Shown piece after piece: positions 58,021 through 64,000 of a stretch of 64,000 bases of DNA. A program made the translations under genes and the position numbers. Source of the DNA: Poseidonia sp. (GTDB lineage: Archaea > Thermoplasmatota > Poseidoniia > Poseidoniales > Poseidoniaceae); the NCBI GenBank assembly GCA_038124565.1, contig JAYPCE010000001.1, positions 47,981 through 111,980 of the forward strand, read 5' to 3'. Numbering within the stretch: position 1 is the stretch's first letter; each line of letters begins with the position of its first letter. Below the pieces are notes generated by a model. That model was not told the DNA's origin and ran no database searches. It saw only the letters and a list, made by a program, of their open reading frames with translations.

Positions 58021-59328
58021 TCAAACGGCTGGTAGGATGCCGATGCGTGCAAGGCCGCCCCAGACGGGATCAAGGAAGGCTGGTAGGAATCGATGACGCA
58101 GGTACACGGCTGCAGCGAGAGAGATTTTTTGCACTTTGTTGAGTTTCACACGGTGGGTAAAGACGTCGCCTTGCTGTTTCTCAATTTGCCTGAGAATCTT
58201 GTCATAGAAAGCGATCATCGCCGCTGGAGAGTAGCGTGAACGGCGCGGAAGCAGAGGGAGCAGTGCTCGGGCTTCTTCCAAGTAGGTGCGTGCCCGAGCA
58301 GCGTAGTGGCGACAATAAGGCTCCCAGTGCTTGTTGAGAACAATACGACCGTCAAGCTCAGGTTCAGTCATACCGTTGCGTTCAAGTTCATCAAGGGGCA
58401 AATAGACACGGTCACGCTGAATGTCTTCGCCAACATCGCGCAAAACGTTCGTGAGTTGCATGAAAATGCCCCAAGACTCAGCATATTTCTTGGCCATGGG
58501 GTTGTCATATCCGTAGACTTCAATGCACATGAGGCCAACGACAGAGGCTACTCTGTAACAATATACATACAATTCATCAAAGGTCCGGTATCGGTTGTTG
58601 TACAGGTCGTCTTCCATGCCGGTAATGAGGTCATCAAACACGTCACGGGGGATGTTGTATCGCTGAACCGTGTCCTTCAAGGCCAAAAAGACAGGATCGG
58701 TTGAGTAGACCTCGCCGTAGCAGGTTGAGAGTTTCTTTCTGAAGAAGAACAGTTGCGTGATTTTGTTGAGGTAAGCCTGCTCATCCAAAATCGTGCCTTG
58801 GTCTTGAAGTGATTCCAATTGAGCTCGGTAGTTCATGGCTTCCGGGTCCAGCATGCCCTGTCCGCCAGGGAAGCGGTCCGACCAATCCCCGTCAGCGATG
58901 TCATCTGCTCGGCGGCAAAACGCATAGATGGCACACATGGCCATTCGCTGCTCGTCGGGCAGGTATTTGAAGGAGTGATAGAAATTACCGGCCTCCCTCA
59001 TCGTCAGTTCTTCACAATAGCGGTAGGCGAGTTTGTGCAATTCTGCTGGCGGTTGTTCGGACCAAATTGGAGCGTCCAAATGGGCGAAGGGGTCCACGAG
59101 TTCGTTCTTTTCACTGACAATCCCAATGAATGAAGCGCCTTCTCGGAGGGCTTCCATGGCCGTGACGCTGACTGCTTTCACGGCGTCTCGAGCGAGGGTA
59201 ACACCCGCCCGCAATCGGTCAAGGGTGTGAGTGGATGTACGTTCTGCCTCGCCGTTTCGACTTGATGCGTTGCCCTTGAGAGGGAACAACAAGTCGAGGG
59301 GTTTGCGGCGTTCCAGCATCCTAACCAA
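58021..59328 (-). CDS. phytoene synthase-like (CrtB/PSY-type) head-to-head prenyl diphosphate condensing enzyme
   Basis: AIYAFCRRADDIADG (first Asp-rich motif), YCYRVASVVGLMC, and LTNVLRDVGEDIQRDRVYLPLDEL (second motif). An N-terminal extension of about 100 aa leaves the true start uncertain (ATG at 59319 or further internal). Confidence 0.8.
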   Translation of the reverse strand: MVRMLERRKPLDLLFPLKGNASSRNGEAERTSTHTLDRLRAGVTLARDAVKAVSVTAMEALREGASFIGIVSEKNELVDPFAHLDAPIWSEQPPAELHKLAYRYCEELTMREAGNFYHSFKYLPDEQRMAMCAIYAFCRRADDIADGDWSDRFPGGQGMLDPEAMNYRAQLESLQDQGTILDEQAYLNKITQLFFFRKKLSTCYGEVYSTDPVFLALKDTVQRYNIPRDVFDDLITGMEDDLYNNRYRTFDELYVYCYRVASVVGLMCIEVYGYDNPMAKKYAESWGIFMQLTNVLRDVGEDIQRDRVYLPLDELERNGMTEPELDGRIVLNKHWEPYCRHYAARARTYLEEARALLPLLPRRSRYSPAAMIAFYDKILRQIEKQQGDVFTHRVKLNKVQKISLAAAVYLRHRFLPAFLDPVWGGLARIGILPAV

Positions 59329-59443
59329 TGGGCCCTTGCGGCCTTCGTTTATGAGTCCTCCTCTTCAGGGTGCGAACAGTGAGCCGTTCTTTGATGTATA
59401 AGTAAGTATTATTTTACATATTGCTGATGTTCTATAGAAAAGT

Positions 59444-60556
59444 TCACTTATCTTTATTTTGCTCAAGGAGTCTTCGGACGCCACCGGGGATGAACAAGGC
59501 CCGAATCAATTTGCGAGCGTAGGTTTTCATTTCCTCTCTGGTCACTTTGATTTGTTCTTCCGAATTCAGGATGTTGCCTGTACGAAGGAGCGTGACGGTT
59601 CGCTGGCCAATCAACACGGGCAACATGCATGATGCTTTGAGTCGGAATTGCGTTTCAGGAATCATACGAATGTACGCTGTTGCTGCCTCCAAATGGTCGT
59701 TCGTGAGGTCGAGGTACCCGTCATACACTGGCCTGAAGGCATCAAGGCAATCGTCGTTCAGTAGGTCGGTGGGAGTAAGATTGTGTTGGCGCAGAACATC
59801 TTCTGGGATATAGCACCGTCCAAACCGTAGGTCCTGAGGAATATCTCGGAGGATGTTGATCATTTGCAAGGCTTTACCAAATCGGATACCTCGCTCCAAG
59901 AACAAGGCTTCGTCTTCGGGAGAAAGTTGCATGAGATGAGCAAGGGACATCTTCGTCCAAAACACACCGACGCAACCGGCTACGCGAAAGGTGTAGTCGT
60001 CCAACTCCTCATCGTTCTTCAGCGCAGAAATAGTGCCGCCTTCATTGGCTGGACCGAAGCGCTCGAGGTCAAGAATTTGCCCGCTGACAATGACATCAAG
60101 GCATTCCAACATACGCTGCTGGTCTCCTTCGCCATACTCATTGAGGCCCGAGATGACCTCAGGCACGCTGCGAAGGAGTTGGGCCTCATGCTCGTTGCTT
60201 TGCAGATTGGCGAGCTCACTCAAGTCTGGTAGTTCGGTTGCTCGGCCTTGGACAACCTCATTGTAGGACCGCAAGTGGTTGAGCAGGACCTCGGTTTCGC
60301 CGTGCTTGGAATCAGCGATAGTATCGGCCACACGGGCAAGTAAGTACAACAGGCCAATTTGACCTCTGATTTTCTTGGGGAGGTATTTGAGTGTTGGATA
60401 AAACGAGCGTGATGTGGTTTCCAACAAGCGGTCAATGTTCTCGTTCACCAACACCGCCAAAGCCATCCCCCCGTCTGGCCCACTTCGCCCCTCCGCATGA
60501 AGATATTCGTTCACCCTGTCCGCCATGCAACGACCCTGTTTTGTTTGAAGTCTCAA
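59444..60556 (-). CDS. squalene synthase-like (FDFT1/eukaryote-archaeal type) member of the SQS/PSY family
   Basis: TSRSFYPTLKYLPKKIRGQIGLLYLLARVADTIADS resembles the SQS signature SRSF...L...R.....YLvlRalDT.eD. Also YTFRVAGCVGVFW and LQMINILRDIPQDLRFGRCYIPEDV. Confidence 0.7.
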   Translation of the reverse strand: MRLQTKQGRCMADRVNEYLHAEGRSGPDGGMALAVLVNENIDRLLETTSRSFYPTLKYLPKKIRGQIGLLYLLARVADTIADSKHGETEVLLNHLRSYNEVVQGRATELPDLSELANLQSNEHEAQLLRSVPEVISGLNEYGEGDQQRMLECLDVIVSGQILDLERFGPANEGGTISALKNDEELDDYTFRVAGCVGVFWTKMSLAHLMQLSPEDEALFLERGIRFGKALQMINILRDIPQDLRFGRCYIPEDVLRQHNLTPTDLLNDDCLDAFRPVYDGYLDLTNDHLEAATAYIRMIPETQFRLKASCMLPVLIGQRTVTLLRTGNILNSEEQIKVTREEMKTYARKLIRALFIPGGVRRLLEQNKDK

Positions 60557-60620: not shown

Positions 60621-62189
60621 ATGAACTGTGGCGCTTGTGGTGAAGCGATTCCAGCCGACAGTATGTTCTGTCCGGAATGCGGTTCCCGCCAAGACATGTC
60701 GGTTGCTGGTGGTTTCGCCCCTCCACCCGCTCAAAACATACCTCCGTTCCCACAGCAGCCGCGCTCGTTTGACCCCGTTTCTGGAGAGCAGCAACGTATG
60801 CAGCAAGAAGCCAACATGAACCAAATGGGCCAAGTCTCACAGGACATGCTCCAAGGCATGGCTCAAGGTTTGAATCAGCACCAAAACCTTCCTCCAGGTA
60901 CCTATCCCCAACAACCAATTCATGGTGGATTCCCTCCCCAGCAGGGCTTCATGCCTCAAGGCAATGTGATGCCGAACAACAATGTCGCTCCACTGAATGA
61001 TATGCCCAACGTGCACCGTGGGCCCTCAATTGCAAGCGGGGTGTTGCCCAACACGAGCAATGTTTCTCCGCTTGCAGCGGGAGGGACAAAAATTGCCCAC
61101 AATCCTGCCAACTCCCCCACCGATGCCATGGTGAACCGACTGGCTGAGGCTGAACGTGCGGTAAAAGAAGATCGCCGAAGTCAATGGCTTTCCATGAACC
61201 AAAGCCCTGCTTCGTCGGTCCTCGCCAACCTCGGTGGCGGCGAGTTGCCTGCTCACCTGCGAGGTGCAGCGGAGAGTGGTAGTGCCGCTGCTGACATCAT
61301 GGCCGGCGCCATGGGGGGACAAGGCAACGATGCACCAAACGATGCATTGTTGCGTCGCATTTCGGAAGTAGCCATTCGCCGTGTGGCTCGAAAGCGCGGC
61401 GTGGCGGTAGAAGCGCCTCAGACCAAACTTGCTGGAGACACGTTTGAAGTCAATGTCACTTATGTTGACGATGGTCGCGTGTTGGATTCTGCTGAAGACC
61501 TCATGCAGGCCTTTGAGCAAGCGATTCAAACCGAGCTTGCGTTGAAGGGGTACGATTTGACATGCACCATCACCATGTTCCGGTCAAAAGATGGAAAAAC
61601 CGAGAAAATCGGTGCAGAAGAAACCGATGAAGACATGTTTGCTTGCGAGATTTGCGACGGTTTGGTCAAGGAAAGCGACCCAACCTGCCCCCATTGTGGA
61701 GCAATGTTTGAGGATGACGGTGATGAAGAGCCTGCTTCCATGCCGCCCAAGCGAGGCGGCCCCCCTGGTCCAAGTAAGTCCGGAGGTCCACCAGGTCCAA
61801 GCAAGAGTGGAGGCCCCCCCGGACCGAAGAAAGGTGGTCCACCAGGACCAAGCAAGAGTGGAGGTCCTCCCGGTCCAAAGAAAGGCGGCCCCCCTGGTCC
61901 AAGCAAGTCCGGGGGTCCACCCGGTCCGAGCAAGAGTGGAGGCCCTCCCGGTCCAAAGAAAGGCGGCCCCCCTGGTCCAAGCAAGAGTGGCGGTCCACCC
62001 GGTCCAAGCAAGAGCGGTGGCCCTCCCAAAGGCGGTCCAGGCGGCGGCCCCCCCGGTCCAAGCAAGAGTGGCGGCCCTCCCGGCCCCAGCAAGAGCGGTG
62101 GCCCTCCAAAAGGTGGTCCTGGTGGCGGCCCCCCAGGCCCCAAGAAGAGCGGTCCTCCCGGTGGTCCAAAACGGGGCCCACCTCGATGA
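60621..62189 (+). CDS. double zinc-ribbon protein with Q/N/P/M-rich region and C-terminal (GGPPGPSKS)n repeat tail; unknown function
   Basis: 522 aa. N-terminal CGACGEAIPADSMFCPECG. A low-complexity Q/N/P/M-rich stretch. A central folded-looking region. A second ribbon, CEICDGLVKESDPTCPHCG. Then about 16 tandem 8-9 aa Gly/Pro/Lys/Ser units running to the stop. Confidence 0.7.
   Translation: MNCGACGEAIPADSMFCPECGSRQDMSVAGGFAPPPAQNIPPFPQQPRSFDPVSGEQQRMQQEANMNQMGQVSQDMLQGMAQGLNQHQNLPPGTYPQQPIHGGFPPQQGFMPQGNVMPNNNVAPLNDMPNVHRGPSIASGVLPNTSNVSPLAAGGTKIAHNPANSPTDAMVNRLAEAERAVKEDRRSQWLSMNQSPASSVLANLGGGELPAHLRGAAESGSAAADIMAGAMGGQGNDAPNDALLRRISEVAIRRVARKRGVAVEAPQTKLAGDTFEVNVTYVDDGRVLDSAEDLMQAFEQAIQTELALKGYDLTCTITMFRSKDGKTEKIGAEETDEDMFACEICDGLVKESDPTCPHCGAMFEDDGDEEPASMPPKRGGPPGPSKSGGPPGPSKSGGPPGPKKGGPPGPSKSGGPPGPKKGGPPGPSKSGGPPGPSKSGGPPGPKKGGPPGPSKSGGPPGPSKSGGPPKGGPGGGPPGPSKSGGPPGPSKSGGPPKGGPGGGPPGPKKSGPPGGPKRGPPR
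61755..62186 (+). repeat. in-frame tandem repeat array (24/27-nt units encoding GGPPGPSKS / GGPPGPKK / GGPPKGGPG)
   Basis: About 16 consecutive units read directly from the sequence. Units differ mostly at third codon positions and by AGY/TCC serine codon switches. The array generates long spurious ORFs in the other five frames. Confidence 0.9.
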
Positions 62190-62203
62190 TCGTGGTGTGA
62201 CCC

Positions 62204-64000
62204 ATGGTCCTCGATTTTGGAAACATCCGGTTTTCCGGCAAATTGAGGCCTTCACAGGTGGCTGCCTCCTCGGTCATTGAGCAGCAACTGAAGGTGGGGG
62301 AAAAAGAACTCTACATCGTCGCCCCTCCCGGTTCAGGAAAAACCATTCTTGGCCTGTATGTGTGGTCGAATTTGGTTCGATGCCCTGCCCTCGTGTTGTC
62401 GCCTAACTCTGCCATTCAAGCCCAGTGGATAGACCGGACTTCTCTCTTCGATTTAGACGGTCGTGAAGACCACCTCGCCCTAACAGCAGACCAACCTGGG
62501 TTACTCACTTCGTTGACCTATCAGTCATTGACGATGGTGAGAACAGAAGGTCAAGATTTGGAACGCGGAGCCATTGAGGTCTGGTCACAGCGACTGATTG
62601 AGCAAGGTGAAGCCATTGACCAAGAAACGGCGCTTGCTTGGCTCGCTGACCTCCAGTCCAACAATCCTTCCTACTTCGAGGAACAGATGAAGAAGCACAG
62701 AAAGCATGTTAGAAACCAACTTGAAACTGAACAGGGAAGCATAGCGTGGCTGAATGAACAATCACGCGCCTCCATTCTTGCTTTGAAAGAAGCCGGTGTC
62801 GGCTTGGTGATTTTGGATGAATGCCATCACCTTACAGAGCATTGGGGAAAGGTCTTGGCAGAGGTTCGAGATTTACTTGACGACCCTGTCATTCTTGGAC
62901 TCACGGCTACCCCGCCTGATAAGGAAAAAGCCGAAGCCCCACATTATTTGCAACTCTTGGGTGAAATTGACTACGAGGTGCCGACACCCGCTTTGGTAAG
63001 GGACTCAAATCTCGCTCCCTACCAAGATCTCGCCTATTTTGTTCGGCCAACAGCGGGTGAATTGGCCTACATCGCTGAGGCCGATCAGGCGTTCCTTGAT
63101 GTCGTACGAGATATCAGTCAACACCGAGAGGGGGAAGGTCGTGCACTTCCATTTGAACCTTGGTTGACTCATGTTCTCGCCAACAAAGAGATTCCAGGCC
63201 GCCAGAACCTGACCTGGAAGCAATTCTACAACGCCATACCAGAATTTGCGGATGCAGCGCGAGCATACCTCCTTGCTAACGACCACCCGTTGCCGCAGGG
63301 CGTCCCCTCTTTTCATGCATCAAACAGCGCGCAGGAACCTGGTGAACAGATACGCTTGTTGAGGCCGTTGCTTGACCGTTACGTGAGATTTGGCTTACGC
63401 CGTTCAACGCATCCTGAGGACCATGCTTTGGCGACAGAGGTCACGGACCGTTTTCGCCTGCTTGGATACCAAATCACTGAAAGTGGAGCACGGCCGTGTG
63501 CGTCGCCAGTTGGTCGAATTCTCGCATATGCTCAAGCGAAGTCAACCGCACTCACCGACATTCTCCGGGTTGAACAGGATGCGCTTGGAGACCGTTTACG
63601 ATGTGTTATTGTTACGGATTTTGAAAAGACATCGTCCACGGCCGTTGTGGAAGGCGTCCATGACGATGAGGCTGGAGGAGCGATTGGTGTTTTCAAAGCC
63701 TTGGTAGCCTGTGAAATCGGAGACCAACTTGACCCGGTGTTGATGACAGGAAGCACCCTCCTCGTTGATGATGACCTTGCCTCTCGATTTCTCGAAAAGG
63801 CTCGGGACTGGGTGGAACAACGAGGCCTCACCATCACGTTCCGTGATGAACCGATGGGTCGATTCCATCACCTCCATGGGTCTGGAAAGGATTGGGCACC
63901 ACGGCATTATTCGACGATGGTGACTGAGTTTTTTCAGGAAGGATTCACGAAATGCCTCATCGGGACTCGTGGCCTCTTGGGAGAGGGATGGGATGCCTCC
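62204..64000 (+). CDS. SF2 helicase (ResIII/DEAD-DEAH-like), 3'-truncated by window edge
   Basis: Not in the ORF track because there is no stop before the window end. ATG at 62204 follows an in-frame TGA at 62198, and 599 codons are open to nt 64000. Motifs: LRPSQ, motif I APPGSGKT, Ia LVLSPNSAIQAQW, II LVILDECHH, III LGLTATPP, and near the end CLIGTRGLLGEGWDAS (motif V/VI region). Confidence 0.8.
   Translation, partial: MVLDFGNIRFSGKLRPSQVAASSVIEQQLKVGEKELYIVAPPGSGKTILGLYVWSNLVRCPALVLSPNSAIQAQWIDRTSLFDLDGREDHLALTADQPGLLTSLTYQSLTMVRTEGQDLERGAIEVWSQRLIEQGEAIDQETALAWLADLQSNNPSYFEEQMKKHRKHVRNQLETEQGSIAWLNEQSRASILALKEAGVGLVILDECHHLTEHWGKVLAEVRDLLDDPVILGLTATPPDKEKAEAPHYLQLLGEIDYEVPTPALVRDSNLAPYQDLAYFVRPTAGELAYIAEADQAFLDVVRDISQHREGEGRALPFEPWLTHVLANKEIPGRQNLTWKQFYNAIPEFADAARAYLLANDHPLPQGVPSFHASNSAQEPGEQIRLLRPLLDRYVRFGLRRSTHPEDHALATEVTDRFRLLGYQITESGARPCASPVGRILAYAQAKSTALTDILRVEQDALGDRLRCVIVTDFEKTSSTAVVEGVHDDEAGGAIGVFKALVACEIGDQLDPVLMTGSTLLVDDDLASRFLEKARDWVEQRGLTITFRDEPMGRFHHLHGSGKDWAPRHYSTMVTEFFQEGFTKCLIGTRGLLGEGWDAS

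Follow-up and report, generated by a model that had tools for sequence, protein, structure and literature searches.

The window analysed here, that is, the whole 64,000-nucleotide stretch of Poseidonia DNA, carries towards its right-hand end a plus-strand gene for a protein with two zinc ribbons, with squalene/phytoene-synthase-family genes on its left and a gene for an SF2 helicase on its right. The genes and the parts of the zinc-ribbon protein are as follows, in window positions and with the basis of each assignment in parentheses.

58021-59328: second squalene/phytoene-synthase-family gene
59444..60556, minus strand: squalene/phytoene-synthase-family gene, the divergent, conserved left-hand neighbour in the slot (Pfam SQS_PSY)
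60621..62189, plus strand: whole zinc-ribbon gene, encoding a 522-aa protein with zinc ribbons, low-complexity sequence and a repeat tail (ORF list and sequence)
60621..60692, plus strand: zinc ribbon 1, aa 1-24, with Cys 3, 6, 17 and 20 (Pfam Zn_Ribbon_1 and DZR; AlphaFold pLDDT ~83)
60693..61100, plus strand: Q/N/P/M-rich disordered linker, aa 25-160, which differs between genera (composition; pLDDT mostly <50)
60843..60869, plus strand: short conserved motif within the linker, aa 75-83, DMLQGMAQG, family pattern [DE]xLxx[IM]AxG (candidate docking motif)
61101..61265, plus strand: long conserved helix and LPxHLR motif, aa 161-215 (alignments A1 and A2; helix 166-194, pLDDT 72-78)
61335..61616, plus strand: family-defining alpha-beta-beta-alpha-beta-beta core, aa 239-332 (pLDDT 86-93; invariant columns)
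61617..61745, plus strand: acidic block with zinc ribbon 2, aa 333-375, with Cys 342, 345, 356 and 359, net charge -14 (Pfam Zn_ribbon_3; pLDDT ~88)
61746..62186, plus strand: basic Gly/Pro/Lys/Ser repeat tail, aa 376-522, net charge +24, 15 units and the tip GPPGGPKRGPPR (Tandem Repeats Finder; unit table)
62190..62203, no strand: 14-nt spacer between the zinc-ribbon gene and the helicase gene (sequence)
62204..64000, plus strand: SF2 helicase (ResIII/DEAD), the N-terminal 599 codons of 922 aa, continuing beyond the window (Pfam; full length read from contig G000:C1)

From its N-terminus, the protein consists of a Cys4 ribbon, the Q/N/P/M-rich linker, a helix, an alpha/beta core, an acidic block that holds the second ribbon, and a basic tail. 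Pfam recognizes the two ribbons and no other domain in the 522 residues: ribbon 1 matches Zn_Ribbon_1 (PF13240; aa 3-24, 28 bits against a cut-off of 25) as well as DZR (PF12773), and ribbon 2 matches Zn_ribbon_3 (PF13248; aa 339-361, 30.5 bits against a cut-off of 27). Both are CxxC...CxxC four-cysteine knuckles that score above the Pfam gathering cut-off, have conserved cysteines and are confidently modelled. AlphaFold also folds the core with confidence and leaves the remainder disordered; disorder extends over more than 60% of the protein. The open reading frame, its two ribbons and a globular-looking centre had been described in a sequence-only reading of this DNA, and all three are borne out by the Pfam matches and the modelled core. 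Alignments show that the whole order shares a layout in which two ribbons accompany a low-complexity region and a globular centre; ribbon 1 is kept across it, and ribbon 2 is missing from some lineages (G025, P0139, P0141), in which the acidic and basic blocks stay. The overall pI is 8.0, with an acidic body (residues 1-375, pI 4.56) set against a tail of pI 12, the acidic block lying directly before the positively charged tail. Neither a signal peptide nor a membrane segment was found, nor any hydrophobic segment, the top Kyte-Doolittle 19-aa window scoring 0.6, and the protein is soluble and cytoplasmic.

The linker is rich in P (15%), Q (13%), G (11%), N (9%) and M (7%), and only 7% of its residues are charged; the Q/N/P/M-rich composition noted earlier therefore stands, but the region measures 136 aa rather than the roughly 110 aa first given. 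Its length and sequence vary in alignment A1, and homologue P0127 has (QFNQQQN)n repeats in it. The short motif embedded in the linker, overlapped by a predicted helix (74-82), recurs in distant homologues as EFLQHIASS, EMLSRIAS, DVLKGIAEG and ELLNQIASG. The segment that follows the linker has seven invariant residues (D168, V171, K182, R186, W189, L190 and N193), and two invariant stretches lie in the core, an Arg/Lys-rich helix, RRVARKRG (253-260), and a loop, DDGRVLD (283-289). The core matched nothing in Pfam, NCBIfam or the PDB sequences (in the last, not even at E <= 10), and Foldseek returned only generic alpha/beta matches (E >= 5e-3), with no recognised nucleic-acid-binding fold among them. 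As modelled, the core is a new folded module that matches no Pfam family or solved fold.

The tail is composed of G (36%), P (34%), K (14%) and S (12%), with Arg at only 2%. It contains 15 complete units, namely nine of GGPPGPSKS, four of GGPPGPKK and two of GGPPKGGPG, followed by the degenerate end GPPGGPKRGPPR; the same three unit types had been recognized in the sequence-only reading, whose count of about 16 comes down to these 15 and the degenerate end, and whose description of the tail as strongly basic and proline-rich agrees with the charge, pI and proline content measured here. Tandem Repeats Finder gives a period of 27 nt with 13.6 copies, and higher-order periods of 51, 78, 81 and 129 nt. 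Among the nine units of identical peptide, the mean DNA identity is only 82% (range 67-96%), and the 10 variable sites are all synonymous (8 third positions and 2 Ser AGY/TCC switches); therefore, the repeat is maintained at the protein level. Judged from this codon pattern, the tail is neither a chance frame nor a very recent slippage product. Across the homologues, tail length ranges from 55 to 208 aa, with a conserved composition and a conserved C-terminal tip, GPKRGPPR; in more distant genera, a tail of this kind is assembled from other units, which in some genera are of the GPSRGPGG type. In the AlphaFold model, the tail has no fixed structure (pLDDT 42-56), and PPG/PPxP-type motifs are displayed along this disordered segment in 15 units that contain PPGP or PPKG. 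A collagen-like (G-X-Y)n tail was considered and rejected, since Gly does not occur at every third residue, the GGPPGPSKS and GGPPGPKK units fall out of the 3-residue register, and units of 8 and 9 residues alternate. The composition had earlier been called unusual for archaeal proteins, which holds in a relative sense only, as ArnA also has a ribbon followed by a Q/P-rich linker, and Gly/Pro-rich low-complexity tails are found on several other proteins of the same genome. One further protein of this genome (C20:12081-13142) has true RanBP2 fingers and an RGG tail.

We found 899 homologues of the zinc-ribbon protein. Conservation of the reading frame among relatives, which the sequence-only reading had left to be checked, is broad: the gene is present as a single copy in 113 of 166 Poseidoniales genomes, in 17 of 24 genera. 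It occupies a fixed slot between sucCD and the squalene-synthase genes, and the divergent arrangement with squalene-synthase (SQS) or FAD-oxidoreductase genes was seen in all six genomes examined, from four families or genera, with an intergenic distance of 64-150 nt. In streamlined lineages (seen in G039, G032 and G029), the slot is cleanly empty, running from sucD to the SQS/HpnE genes; a divergent orthologue hidden in these 'negative' genera was rejected, given the empty slots and a negative profile search. In a search of 1.8 billion cluster representatives, only members of the family were recovered (45 at E <= 1e-10), the further matches being to the zinc ribbon alone; one match to a eukaryotic repeat protein in the same search was spurious. 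The gene is vertically inherited. As far as sequence comparison goes, it is a real, conserved gene under selection, and it is specific to Poseidoniales (Marine Group II), none being detected beyond the family of Poseidoniales-like proteins. A role as an anti-phage defence system was rejected, since PADLOC gave no match for the zinc-ribbon protein and its gene lies at a core position of the chromosome, where synteny is conserved. A literature search for Poseidoniales in combination with zinc ribbons returned nothing, and a broader search found nothing relevant.

We tentatively propose, as the leading possibility, that the zinc-ribbon protein is a Poseidoniales-specific cytoplasmic scaffold or adaptor that binds a polyanion or nucleic acid in a multivalent manner. 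Its observed architecture is one of small folded modules strung along long disordered segments. The tail might form an extended, polyproline-II-like, multivalent polycation, which, jointly with the ribbons and the core's basic helix, would bind a polyanionic partner, most probably nucleic acid, while the adjoining acidic and basic blocks and the Q/N/P-rich linker might favour self-association. The protein would thus concentrate or tether its ligand and not catalyse a reaction, and in Poseidonia and two sister genera it may help to load or tether a probably co-transcribed SF2 helicase. Nucleic acids are commonly bound by Cys4 zinc ribbons and by disordered tails rich in Lys/Pro or Arg/Gly, as in TFIIB, TFS, the C-terminal ribbons of topoisomerase I, histone H1 tails and RGG tails. 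The roles suggested for the tail in the sequence-only reading, binding of nucleic acid or action as a spacer or condensate element, are plausible. However, several observations argue against the proposal. No nucleic-acid-binding fold was recognized in the core, for which the best Foldseek match (E 5e-3) is to C-terminal domains of cation-diffusion facilitators and KH-type domains match equally weakly; the folded body is net acidic; the charge density of the tail (14% Lys) is far below that of histone H1-type tails; and the helicase link is missing over most of the range of the family. Further, the genus-level co-occurrence of the gene with a Trp-rich tag on acidic protein tails, described below, points to a protein ligand.

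This tag, hereafter the W-tag, has the consensus DENGxEW[FW]EDEDGxWWYRExGxxxWxxY (for example, SIDENGVEWFEDEDGYWWYREEGETEWQPYDE) and forms the C-terminal end of a small acidic cytosolic protein and of several giant surface proteins, the cytoplasmic tails of which are very acidic. Alternative to a nucleic-acid ligand, the (GGPPGPxK)n tail might be a multivalent, proline-rich, basic ligand of the W-tag, by which the zinc-ribbon protein, acting below the membrane, would tie tagged tails together or to another component of the cell; we regard this role as rather unlikely, although it is suggested by a close match in distribution. Of 166 genomes, 118 encode the W-tag; they belong to exactly the 17 genera that have the zinc-ribbon gene, and the 7 genera without the gene have no W-tag either. 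Whole genes for two tagged proteins, one of 240 aa and the other a surface protein of 1428 aa, are missing from each of the 16 zinc-ribbon-negative genomes tested; of 7 zinc-ribbon-positive genomes, 6 have the former and 7 the latter. Archaellin, the helicase and another cytoplasmic tail domain (kept in g6) are distributed differently. At least six proteins of the source genome carry the W-tag after a membrane helix and D/E runs, the charge of which complements that of the +24 tail. The W-tag is modelled as a small antiparallel sheet of 3-4 strands (pLDDT ~84) with seven conserved aromatics in ~30 aa, and exposed aromatics are typical of proline-recognition domains (WW, GYF, SH3).

The weight of this co-occurrence is reduced by the phylogeny. 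In a tree of sucC+sucD, the zinc-ribbon-negative genomes make up one large clade plus g6, so that the co-loss of gene and W-tag amounts to only one or two events, and this count is itself uncertain, since the tree agrees only in part with the assignment to genera and families. The large negative clade is, moreover, streamlined and has lost many genes. The W-tag cannot be assigned to the GYF or WW domains, since Pfam finds neither in the W-tags and Foldseek gives no significant match, superposing the tag on single beta-propeller blades at E ~3. Further, the zinc-ribbon gene and the tagged genes are not adjacent, and the zinc ribbons and the core would be left unexplained. The genus-for-genus co-occurrence gives a hint of an adaptor role below the membrane, a hint based on only one or two losses. 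That it reflects a previously undescribed Poseidoniales system, in which proline recognition and charge would make the +24 tail the ligand of the ~30-residue W-tag and tie the surface proteome to an internal scaffold, is doubtful. Its proposed components, the zinc-ribbon protein, the small tagged protein and the tagged surface proteins, are shared by 17 genera and jointly missing from 7.

The downstream helicase offers another partner. The stop codon of the zinc-ribbon gene (62187-62189) and the ATG of the helicase (62204) confirm the 14-nt, same-strand spacing from which the sequence-only reading had proposed a functional pair, and this adjacency recurs in every judgeable Poseidonia genome (g1), even on contigs broken within the repeat, and in the sister genera g15 and g16, with a gap of 12-14 nt on the same strand in all three. 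Terminator-like sequences at the spacer were no more frequent than in shuffled sequence; the promoter and terminator scan, which used a bacterial consensus and gave counts at the shuffle level, is uninformative. With no convincing terminator in the spacer, the zinc-ribbon gene is probably co-transcribed with the SF2 helicase gene in Poseidonia and these two sister genera, as far as gene spacing can indicate. The protein might accordingly be read as a dedicated accessory subunit of the helicase, a nucleic-acid-binding or recruiting adaptor forming one functional unit with it, and in g21 the two genes lie on one contig, 3.3 kb apart. However, we consider this unlikely. No linkage between the two genes is seen in G025, G033, G042 and G104; six genera (g3, g4, g11, g14, g20 and g24) have the zinc-ribbon gene and no helicase, and two (g7 and g8) have the helicase and no zinc-ribbon gene; where no helicase is found at the slot, the gene adjoins sucD or a LysE-like gene; and none of the 120 closest helicase homologues has a fused zinc ribbon. 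The proposed pairing thus holds for g1, g15 and g16 and fails elsewhere, and an obligate partnership was rejected as a general rule. The helicase is a neighbour and not an obligate partner, and the function of the zinc-ribbon family is independent of it. In PADLOC, the helicase itself gave only a weak DinG-like match (E 2e-5 over 80 aa), and it had no match among PDB sequences at E <= 1e-3.

On the other side of the gene, the divergent squalene-synthase (HpnC/D/E-like) cluster raises the question of whether the protein is a zinc-finger transcription regulator of that cluster, similar to Brz, a small archaeal zinc-finger regulator. In all six genomes examined across the order, the gene stands head to head with SQS or FAD-oxidoreductase genes, an arrangement of the kind expected by comparative genomics, in which one member of a conserved divergent gene pair is often a regulator, and the protein does have zinc ribbons and an arginine-rich helix. 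However, every lineage that lost the zinc-ribbon gene still has the SQS cluster beside sucD, and gene order is generally conserved in this region. Further, known archaeal transcription factors do not resemble a mostly disordered protein of ~520 aa that ends in a ~150-aa repeat tail, and no helix-turn-helix or other DNA-reading domain was found by Pfam, NCBIfam or Foldseek. Such a regulatory role is therefore improbable.

It is very improbable that the protein is an archaellum-regulating signalling protein like ArnA. The family profile does match ArnA of Sulfolobus (PDB 5a8i, E 1e-3, profile positions 2-131), with which ribbon 1 aligns, and this is the only sequence-level PDB match of the family. 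However, it covers only the ribbon and the compositionally biased Q/P-rich linker and ends before the FHA domain, no FHA domain was found in Pfam or NCBIfam, and the core is alpha/beta and not a beta-sandwich. Archaellin (PF01917), moreover, is absent from the gene-positive g3, g4 and g24 and present in the gene-negative g10 and g23, and this discordant phyletic pattern, together with the missing FHA domain, led us to reject an archaellum regulator.

Finally, it is hardly credible that the copy number or frame of the repeat tail is an assembly artefact and that the actual gene is shorter or a pseudogene: although many metagenome-assembled contigs end inside the gene, ~23 homologues have frame-shifted tails (20 of them from contigs >130 kb), the tail DNA contains six C6-C7 runs, and the median tail is 184 aa on contigs >= 250 kb against 110 aa on shorter ones, so that copies may be collapsed in short-read assemblies, the Gly/Pro/Lys frame, the composition and the same conserved tip recur in hundreds of independent assemblies. 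The differences between units are synonymous, distant genera make the same kind of tail from different units, and a frame-shifted tail often comes back into frame and finishes with the usual tip, the outcome expected if long-read assemblies contain homopolymer indel errors.

Poseidoniales (Marine Group II) rank with the most abundant archaea of the surface ocean. We know of no cultured representative, and their cell biology is therefore known from sequence alone. The zinc-ribbon gene adds to this a conserved, order-specific and uncharacterised component. If its tail is the ligand of the W-tag, the gene would belong to a new kind of archaeal membrane-to-cytoplasm adaptor system; if the tail binds nucleic acid, the nucleoid- or RNA-associated proteins would gain a new member specific to this lineage, some branches of which would pair it with a helicase. 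In eukaryotes, scaffolding and condensate formation are tied to blocks of the Q/N/P-rich, acidic and polycationic polyproline-like kinds, and a protein of which more than half is disordered in such blocks offers a prokaryotic test case for how these sequences are used and selected, the composition of the repeat and its tip being conserved while the copy number drifts between strains. In practice, many metagenome assemblies break at the repeat, and public genomes therefore often contain a truncated or frame-shifted copy of the gene.

Among known systems, ArnA of Sulfolobus acidocaldarius (5a8i, 8s05) is likewise cytoplasmic, and a long disordered Q/P-rich linker joins its N-terminal Cys4 ribbon to a folded domain. 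This domain is an FHA beta-sandwich, and ArnA lacks the second ribbon, the acidic block and the basic repeat tail. The archaeal XPB/Bax1 pair is similar in that an SF2 helicase gene follows the gene of its partner in an operon-like arrangement, and the N-terminus of the helicase found here is weakly XPB-like (NCBIfam E 2e-8 over ~100 aa, 33 bits against a cut-off of 610). However, the zinc-ribbon protein has no Bax1 nuclease domain, and its pairing with a helicase is found in three genera only. For the core, the best structural match is the C-terminal domain of cation-diffusion facilitators (CzrB 3byr, MamM 3w5x), an alpha-beta-beta-alpha-beta two-layer sandwich (TM-score 0.50-0.57 over 85-95 columns). 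With E values of 5e-3 to 3e-2, 10-20% identity, neither a transporter domain nor common metal-site residues, and equally weak Foldseek matches to OsmC and to the KH-type domains of uS3 and Era, this likeness is, on the predicted model, a generic fold resemblance.

The order of elements recalls the FET family (FUS/EWS/TAF15), in which Q-rich low-complexity sequence leads into a small alpha/beta domain, after which come a finger of the zinc-ribbon type and a disordered tail that is basic and Gly-rich. This is a resemblance of design and not homology: neither an RRM (PF00076) nor a RanBP2 finger (PF00641) was found in the zinc-ribbon protein at E <= 0.1, the topology of its core is not that of an RRM, and its tail is Lys/Pro-based without RGG/RG repeats. 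Disordered C-terminal tails of tandem short basic Pro/Lys units are also found in histone H1 (SPKK motifs) and mycobacterial HU (Hlp/MDP1, PAKKA repeats), where they bind and compact DNA. In contrast, the present tail, given its G, P and K contents, has about one third of the charge density of H1/HU-type tails, has no S/T-P-K-K turn motif, and is attached to an acidic zinc-ribbon protein instead of a histone or HU fold. Lastly, although no sequence or fold relation links them, bacterial SSB and FtsZ resemble the zinc-ribbon protein in having a length-variable disordered C-terminal segment with a short conserved tip, and their tips dock partner proteins; here, the segment that leads to the GPKRGPPR tip is a regular and strongly basic repeat.

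The open reading frame that the sequence-only reading placed at 60621-62189 on the forward strand is present as described in both the ORF list and the sequence, and encodes a protein of 522 amino acids. Pfam recognised two zinc ribbons alone (aa 3-24 and 339-361, both above cut-offs), and NCBIfam added no further domain.

Parts of the zinc-ribbon protein, from N- to C-terminus
aa 1-24, zinc ribbon 1
aa 25-160, Q/N/P/M-rich segment (24% Q+N, 7% charged residues)
aa 161-215, conserved helical region
between helical region and core, Ala/Gly linker
aa 239-332, globular core
aa 333-375, acidic block with zinc ribbon 2 (net charge -14)
aa 376-522, tail (G 36%, P 34%, K 14%, S 12%; net charge +24; pI 12)

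The low-complexity segment, put earlier at about 110 residues, is there but extends over aa 25-160, and the repeat tail comprises 15 complete units and a degenerate end (GPPGGPKRGPPR). Tandem Repeats Finder reported a 27-nt period plus higher-order periods. The nine units encoding GGPPGPSKS are identical as peptides and just 82% identical as DNA, with 10 of 10 variable sites being synonymous. Since no hydrophobic segment was found (maximum Kyte-Doolittle window 0.6), the protein is soluble and cytoplasmic.

An AlphaFold2 model built from a 21-sequence alignment placed both ribbons (pLDDT 82-89) and the core (aa 241-332, pLDDT 86-93, topology helix-strand-strand-helix-strand-strand) with confidence and helix 166-194 with moderate confidence, and left the remainder disordered, including the whole tail (pLDDT 42-56). 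Foldseek gave no match in the PDB below E 5e-3; its top matches were alpha-beta-beta-alpha-beta C-terminal domains of cation-diffusion-facilitator transporters (TM-score 0.50-0.57), followed by OsmC/Ohr proteins and KH-type domains of uS3 and Era. A core profile matched no PDB sequence even at E <= 10, and the core, contained in no known family, is best described from the model as a new family with a predicted generic two-layer alpha/beta fold. The sole PDB sequence match of the full-length profile was Sulfolobus ArnA (E 1e-3), spanning the ribbon at the N-terminus and the Q/P-rich linker of ArnA itself, with the FHA domain of ArnA outside the match.

A word-indexed search returned 899 homologues, the close ones carrying the source names Candidatus Poseidonia or Poseidoniaceae. 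When aa 150-375 were searched exhaustively against 1.8 billion cluster representatives, 45 representatives at E <= 1e-10 all shared the architecture, and matches beyond them were limited to the zinc ribbon. Homologues from four other genera (44-55% identity) keep the same part order. The low-complexity linker differs between homologues in both length and sequence, yet contains a recurring short motif, [DE]xLxx[IM]AxG (aa 75-83 in the window protein), and nearly all invariant residues fall in the helix region (D168, K182, R186, W189, L190, N193) and the core (E249-V250; R253-R254-V255-x-R257-K258-R259-G260; D283-D284-G285-R286-V287-L288-D289; T304-E305; L308-K309-G310). Some lineages lack zinc ribbon 2 and keep the acidic block, the basic Gly/Pro tail and its tip, [KR]RGPP[RK]. 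Proteins with the canonical tip have tails of 55 to 208 aa, and near-identical proteins differ in tail length by one-unit steps; selection acts on the composition and tip of this polycationic Gly/Pro/Lys tail, not on its length. In one low-GC relative (P0127, 565 aa), the linker carries a perfect Q/N-rich tandem repeat, (QFNQQQN)n, far more prion-like than that of the window protein, and the tail is read in another frame.

Many contigs stop inside the repeat, a few hundred bases from the core. Among the 120 homologues listed, about 23 have tails slipping into the repeat's other two frames, 20 of them on contigs of more than 130 kb, and several regain the frame and finish with the canonical tip. 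Given six C6-C7 runs in the tail DNA, the simplest explanation is that long-read assemblies contain homopolymer indel errors, which probably account for the slipped tails, although some may represent real phase variation. Such alternative-frame tails (RRRAVLPAV... or EERRSSW...) belong almost exclusively to proteins encoded on very long contigs (P0006, P0008, P0013, P0014, P0019, P0020, P0036, P0037, P0050, P0063 and others). In-frame tails have a median of 184 aa on contigs of at least 250 kb (range 106-195, n=11) and 110 aa on shorter contigs, and the window's 147-aa tail may be slightly collapsed; that the repeat tail is itself an assembly artefact is exceedingly improbable.

The source genome comprises 1.9 Mb in 92 contigs, the window being G000:C1:47981-111980. 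Among 166 Poseidoniales genomes, each at least 85% complete, a conserved-region profile search found one copy of the gene in 113. These represent 17 of 24 genera, namely every genus of the window's family and of a second family, and six genera of a third. Genomes of the seven negative genera are small (1.3-1.7 Mb), and one of them is closed. The slot of the gene is fixed: sucC-sucD, zinc-ribbon gene, (FAD oxidoreductase), two squalene/phytoene-synthase-family genes. In three negative genomes the synthase or oxidoreductase genes directly adjoin sucD, which shows that the gene has been lost and not merely altered beyond recognition. Given the fixed slot and clean loss, the gene is therefore vertically inherited, lineage-specific and dispensable. 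The window's two adjoining synthase genes lie at 58021-60556 on the reverse strand; in other genera (loci L014 and L019) a FAD-dependent amine-oxidase-like gene adjoins them, so that the set looks like an HpnC/D/E-type squalene pathway, and the block from sucCD to oxidoreductase/synthase is syntenic order-wide.

Taken together, the zinc-ribbon protein is a conserved, order-specific, soluble protein in which small folded modules lie between long disordered regions, with an acidic body. The tail would be extended and would bind a polyanionic partner multivalently. We rank nucleic acid first, tentatively, on account of the zinc ribbons, the invariant Arg/Lys helix, a tail logic analogous to that of H1 or RGG proteins, and a helicase operon in part of the lineage. 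It is also quite possible that the function falls outside all readings considered here. PADLOC gave no defence-system match, and we found no literature on the family.

A serious second candidate, which we consider rather doubtful, is that the tail binds acidic cytoplasmic tails of surface proteins. A whole-genome low-complexity scan detected Gly/Pro-rich segments also in cytoplasmic tails of giant type-I surface proteins, in every case past a membrane helix and an Asp/Glu run. Several such tails, and a small acidic cytosolic protein of 240 aa, end in a conserved Trp/Tyr-rich tag of about 30 aa, DENGxEW[FW]EDEDGxWWYRExGxxxWxxY, found at the C-terminus of at least six proteins of the source genome.

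Tag-bearing proteins of the source genome (five large type-I surface proteins with membrane helix, Asp/Glu runs and tag; one small acidic cytosolic protein)
C18:22979-26671, reverse strand
C2:28031-32317, forward strand
C13:15898-21018, reverse strand
C43:1421-5782, forward strand
C24:1-4748, reverse strand
C30:2320-3042, forward strand

In the AlphaFold model the tag folds into a small antiparallel sheet (pLDDT about 84); Pfam called neither WW nor GYF, and Foldseek gave no significant match, with superposition only on single propeller blades. Tag and zinc-ribbon gene co-occur genus for genus: the tag is present in 118 of 166 genomes, in exactly the 17 positive genera and 0 of the 7 negative ones, and the five tag-positive genomes without the gene are incomplete and from positive genera. 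Whole genes are missing from all 16 negative genomes tested, both for the 240-aa protein (present in 6 of 7 positive genomes) and for a 1428-aa tagged surface protein (7 of 7). A control tail domain, from a 2151-aa protein, has a different distribution (14 genera), being kept in g6 and undetected in g2, g11, g12 and g21. However, in a sucC+sucD tree of 30 Poseidoniales genomes (L023-L052), only partly congruent with taxonomy, 12 of 14 negative genomes group in a single clade (support 95/98) and g6 stands apart beside a positive genus (95/84), and the co-loss therefore amounts to one or two events. The same tree places g12 and g20, which carry the label of the window's family, among third-family genera and splits each of g7, g8, g10 and g22, reflecting either sucCD transfer or recombination or weak resolution.

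Further low-complexity proteins were observed in the source genome, with long Pro- or Gly/Pro-rich segments such as (PPMPPG)n and GGPGGSPPGRG in the first four listed.

Other low-complexity proteins of the source genome
C25:10897-17352, reverse strand, Pro- or Gly/Pro-rich protein
C31:16194-21689, forward strand, Pro- or Gly/Pro-rich protein
C44:3596-7054, forward strand, Pro- or Gly/Pro-rich protein
C10:38635-39915, forward strand, Pro- or Gly/Pro-rich protein
C20:12081-13142, reverse strand, 353-aa protein with Gar1-like N-terminus (weak match, E 0.013), two RanBP2-type zinc fingers (Pfam E 5.5e-19) and long RGG/RG-rich tail

In the C25 and C31 proteins the segment lies in the cytoplasmic tail, past the membrane helix, and at the end of the C25 tail stands another conserved domain, which has a distribution of its own (14 of 24 genera). 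The domain combination of the C20 protein is eukaryote-like in an archaeon.

That the protein is a dedicated helicase subunit is unlikely. The stop codon lies 14 nt before the ATG of a 922-aa helicase, in which the N-terminal motor alone was recognised (Pfam ResIII, DEAD), with a weak XPB-like stretch far below cut-off and no match among PDB sequences. As the terminator signal is not above chance, the two genes are probably co-transcribed in the window genome. The functional pair proposed from this adjacency holds in part: the helicase follows the gene in every judgeable Poseidonia genome, including contigs broken inside the repeat with a tail fragment adjoining the helicase, and in g15 and g16, but elsewhere the genes are far apart or on different contigs (G025, G033, G042, G104), separated by 3.3 kb (G139), or found one without the other (zinc-ribbon gene only in g3, g4, g11, g14, g20 and g24; helicase only in g7 and g8). 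None of the 120 closest helicase homologues is fused to a zinc ribbon, and the helicase cannot be required for the family's function. Two genes flank the helicase in G008, G039 and G037, one for a PriS-like primase-domain protein (Pfam DNA_primase_S, E 7e-6) and one for a two-helix membrane protein that ends in a Cys-rich finger. A tblastn search of the source genome found neither.

Helicase neighbourhoods
L018:4094-5971
L019:2966-5162
L020:1335-3602

Regulation of the squalene-synthase genes, which are divergently oriented from the zinc-ribbon gene in every case, is improbable. An archaellum regulator, suggested by the resemblance to ArnA, was rejected, as the distribution of archaellin (PF01917) is discordant: absent from three gene-bearing genera and present in two without the gene.

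Compared with known systems, the protein shares with ArnA just the module of N-terminal ribbon and linker. Its likeness to FET proteins, to H1- or HU-type basic tails and to the linker-plus-tip designs of SSB or FtsZ is one of functional analogy, not kinship, and we file it, as a broad kind, among zinc-ribbon-anchored, largely disordered adaptor proteins.
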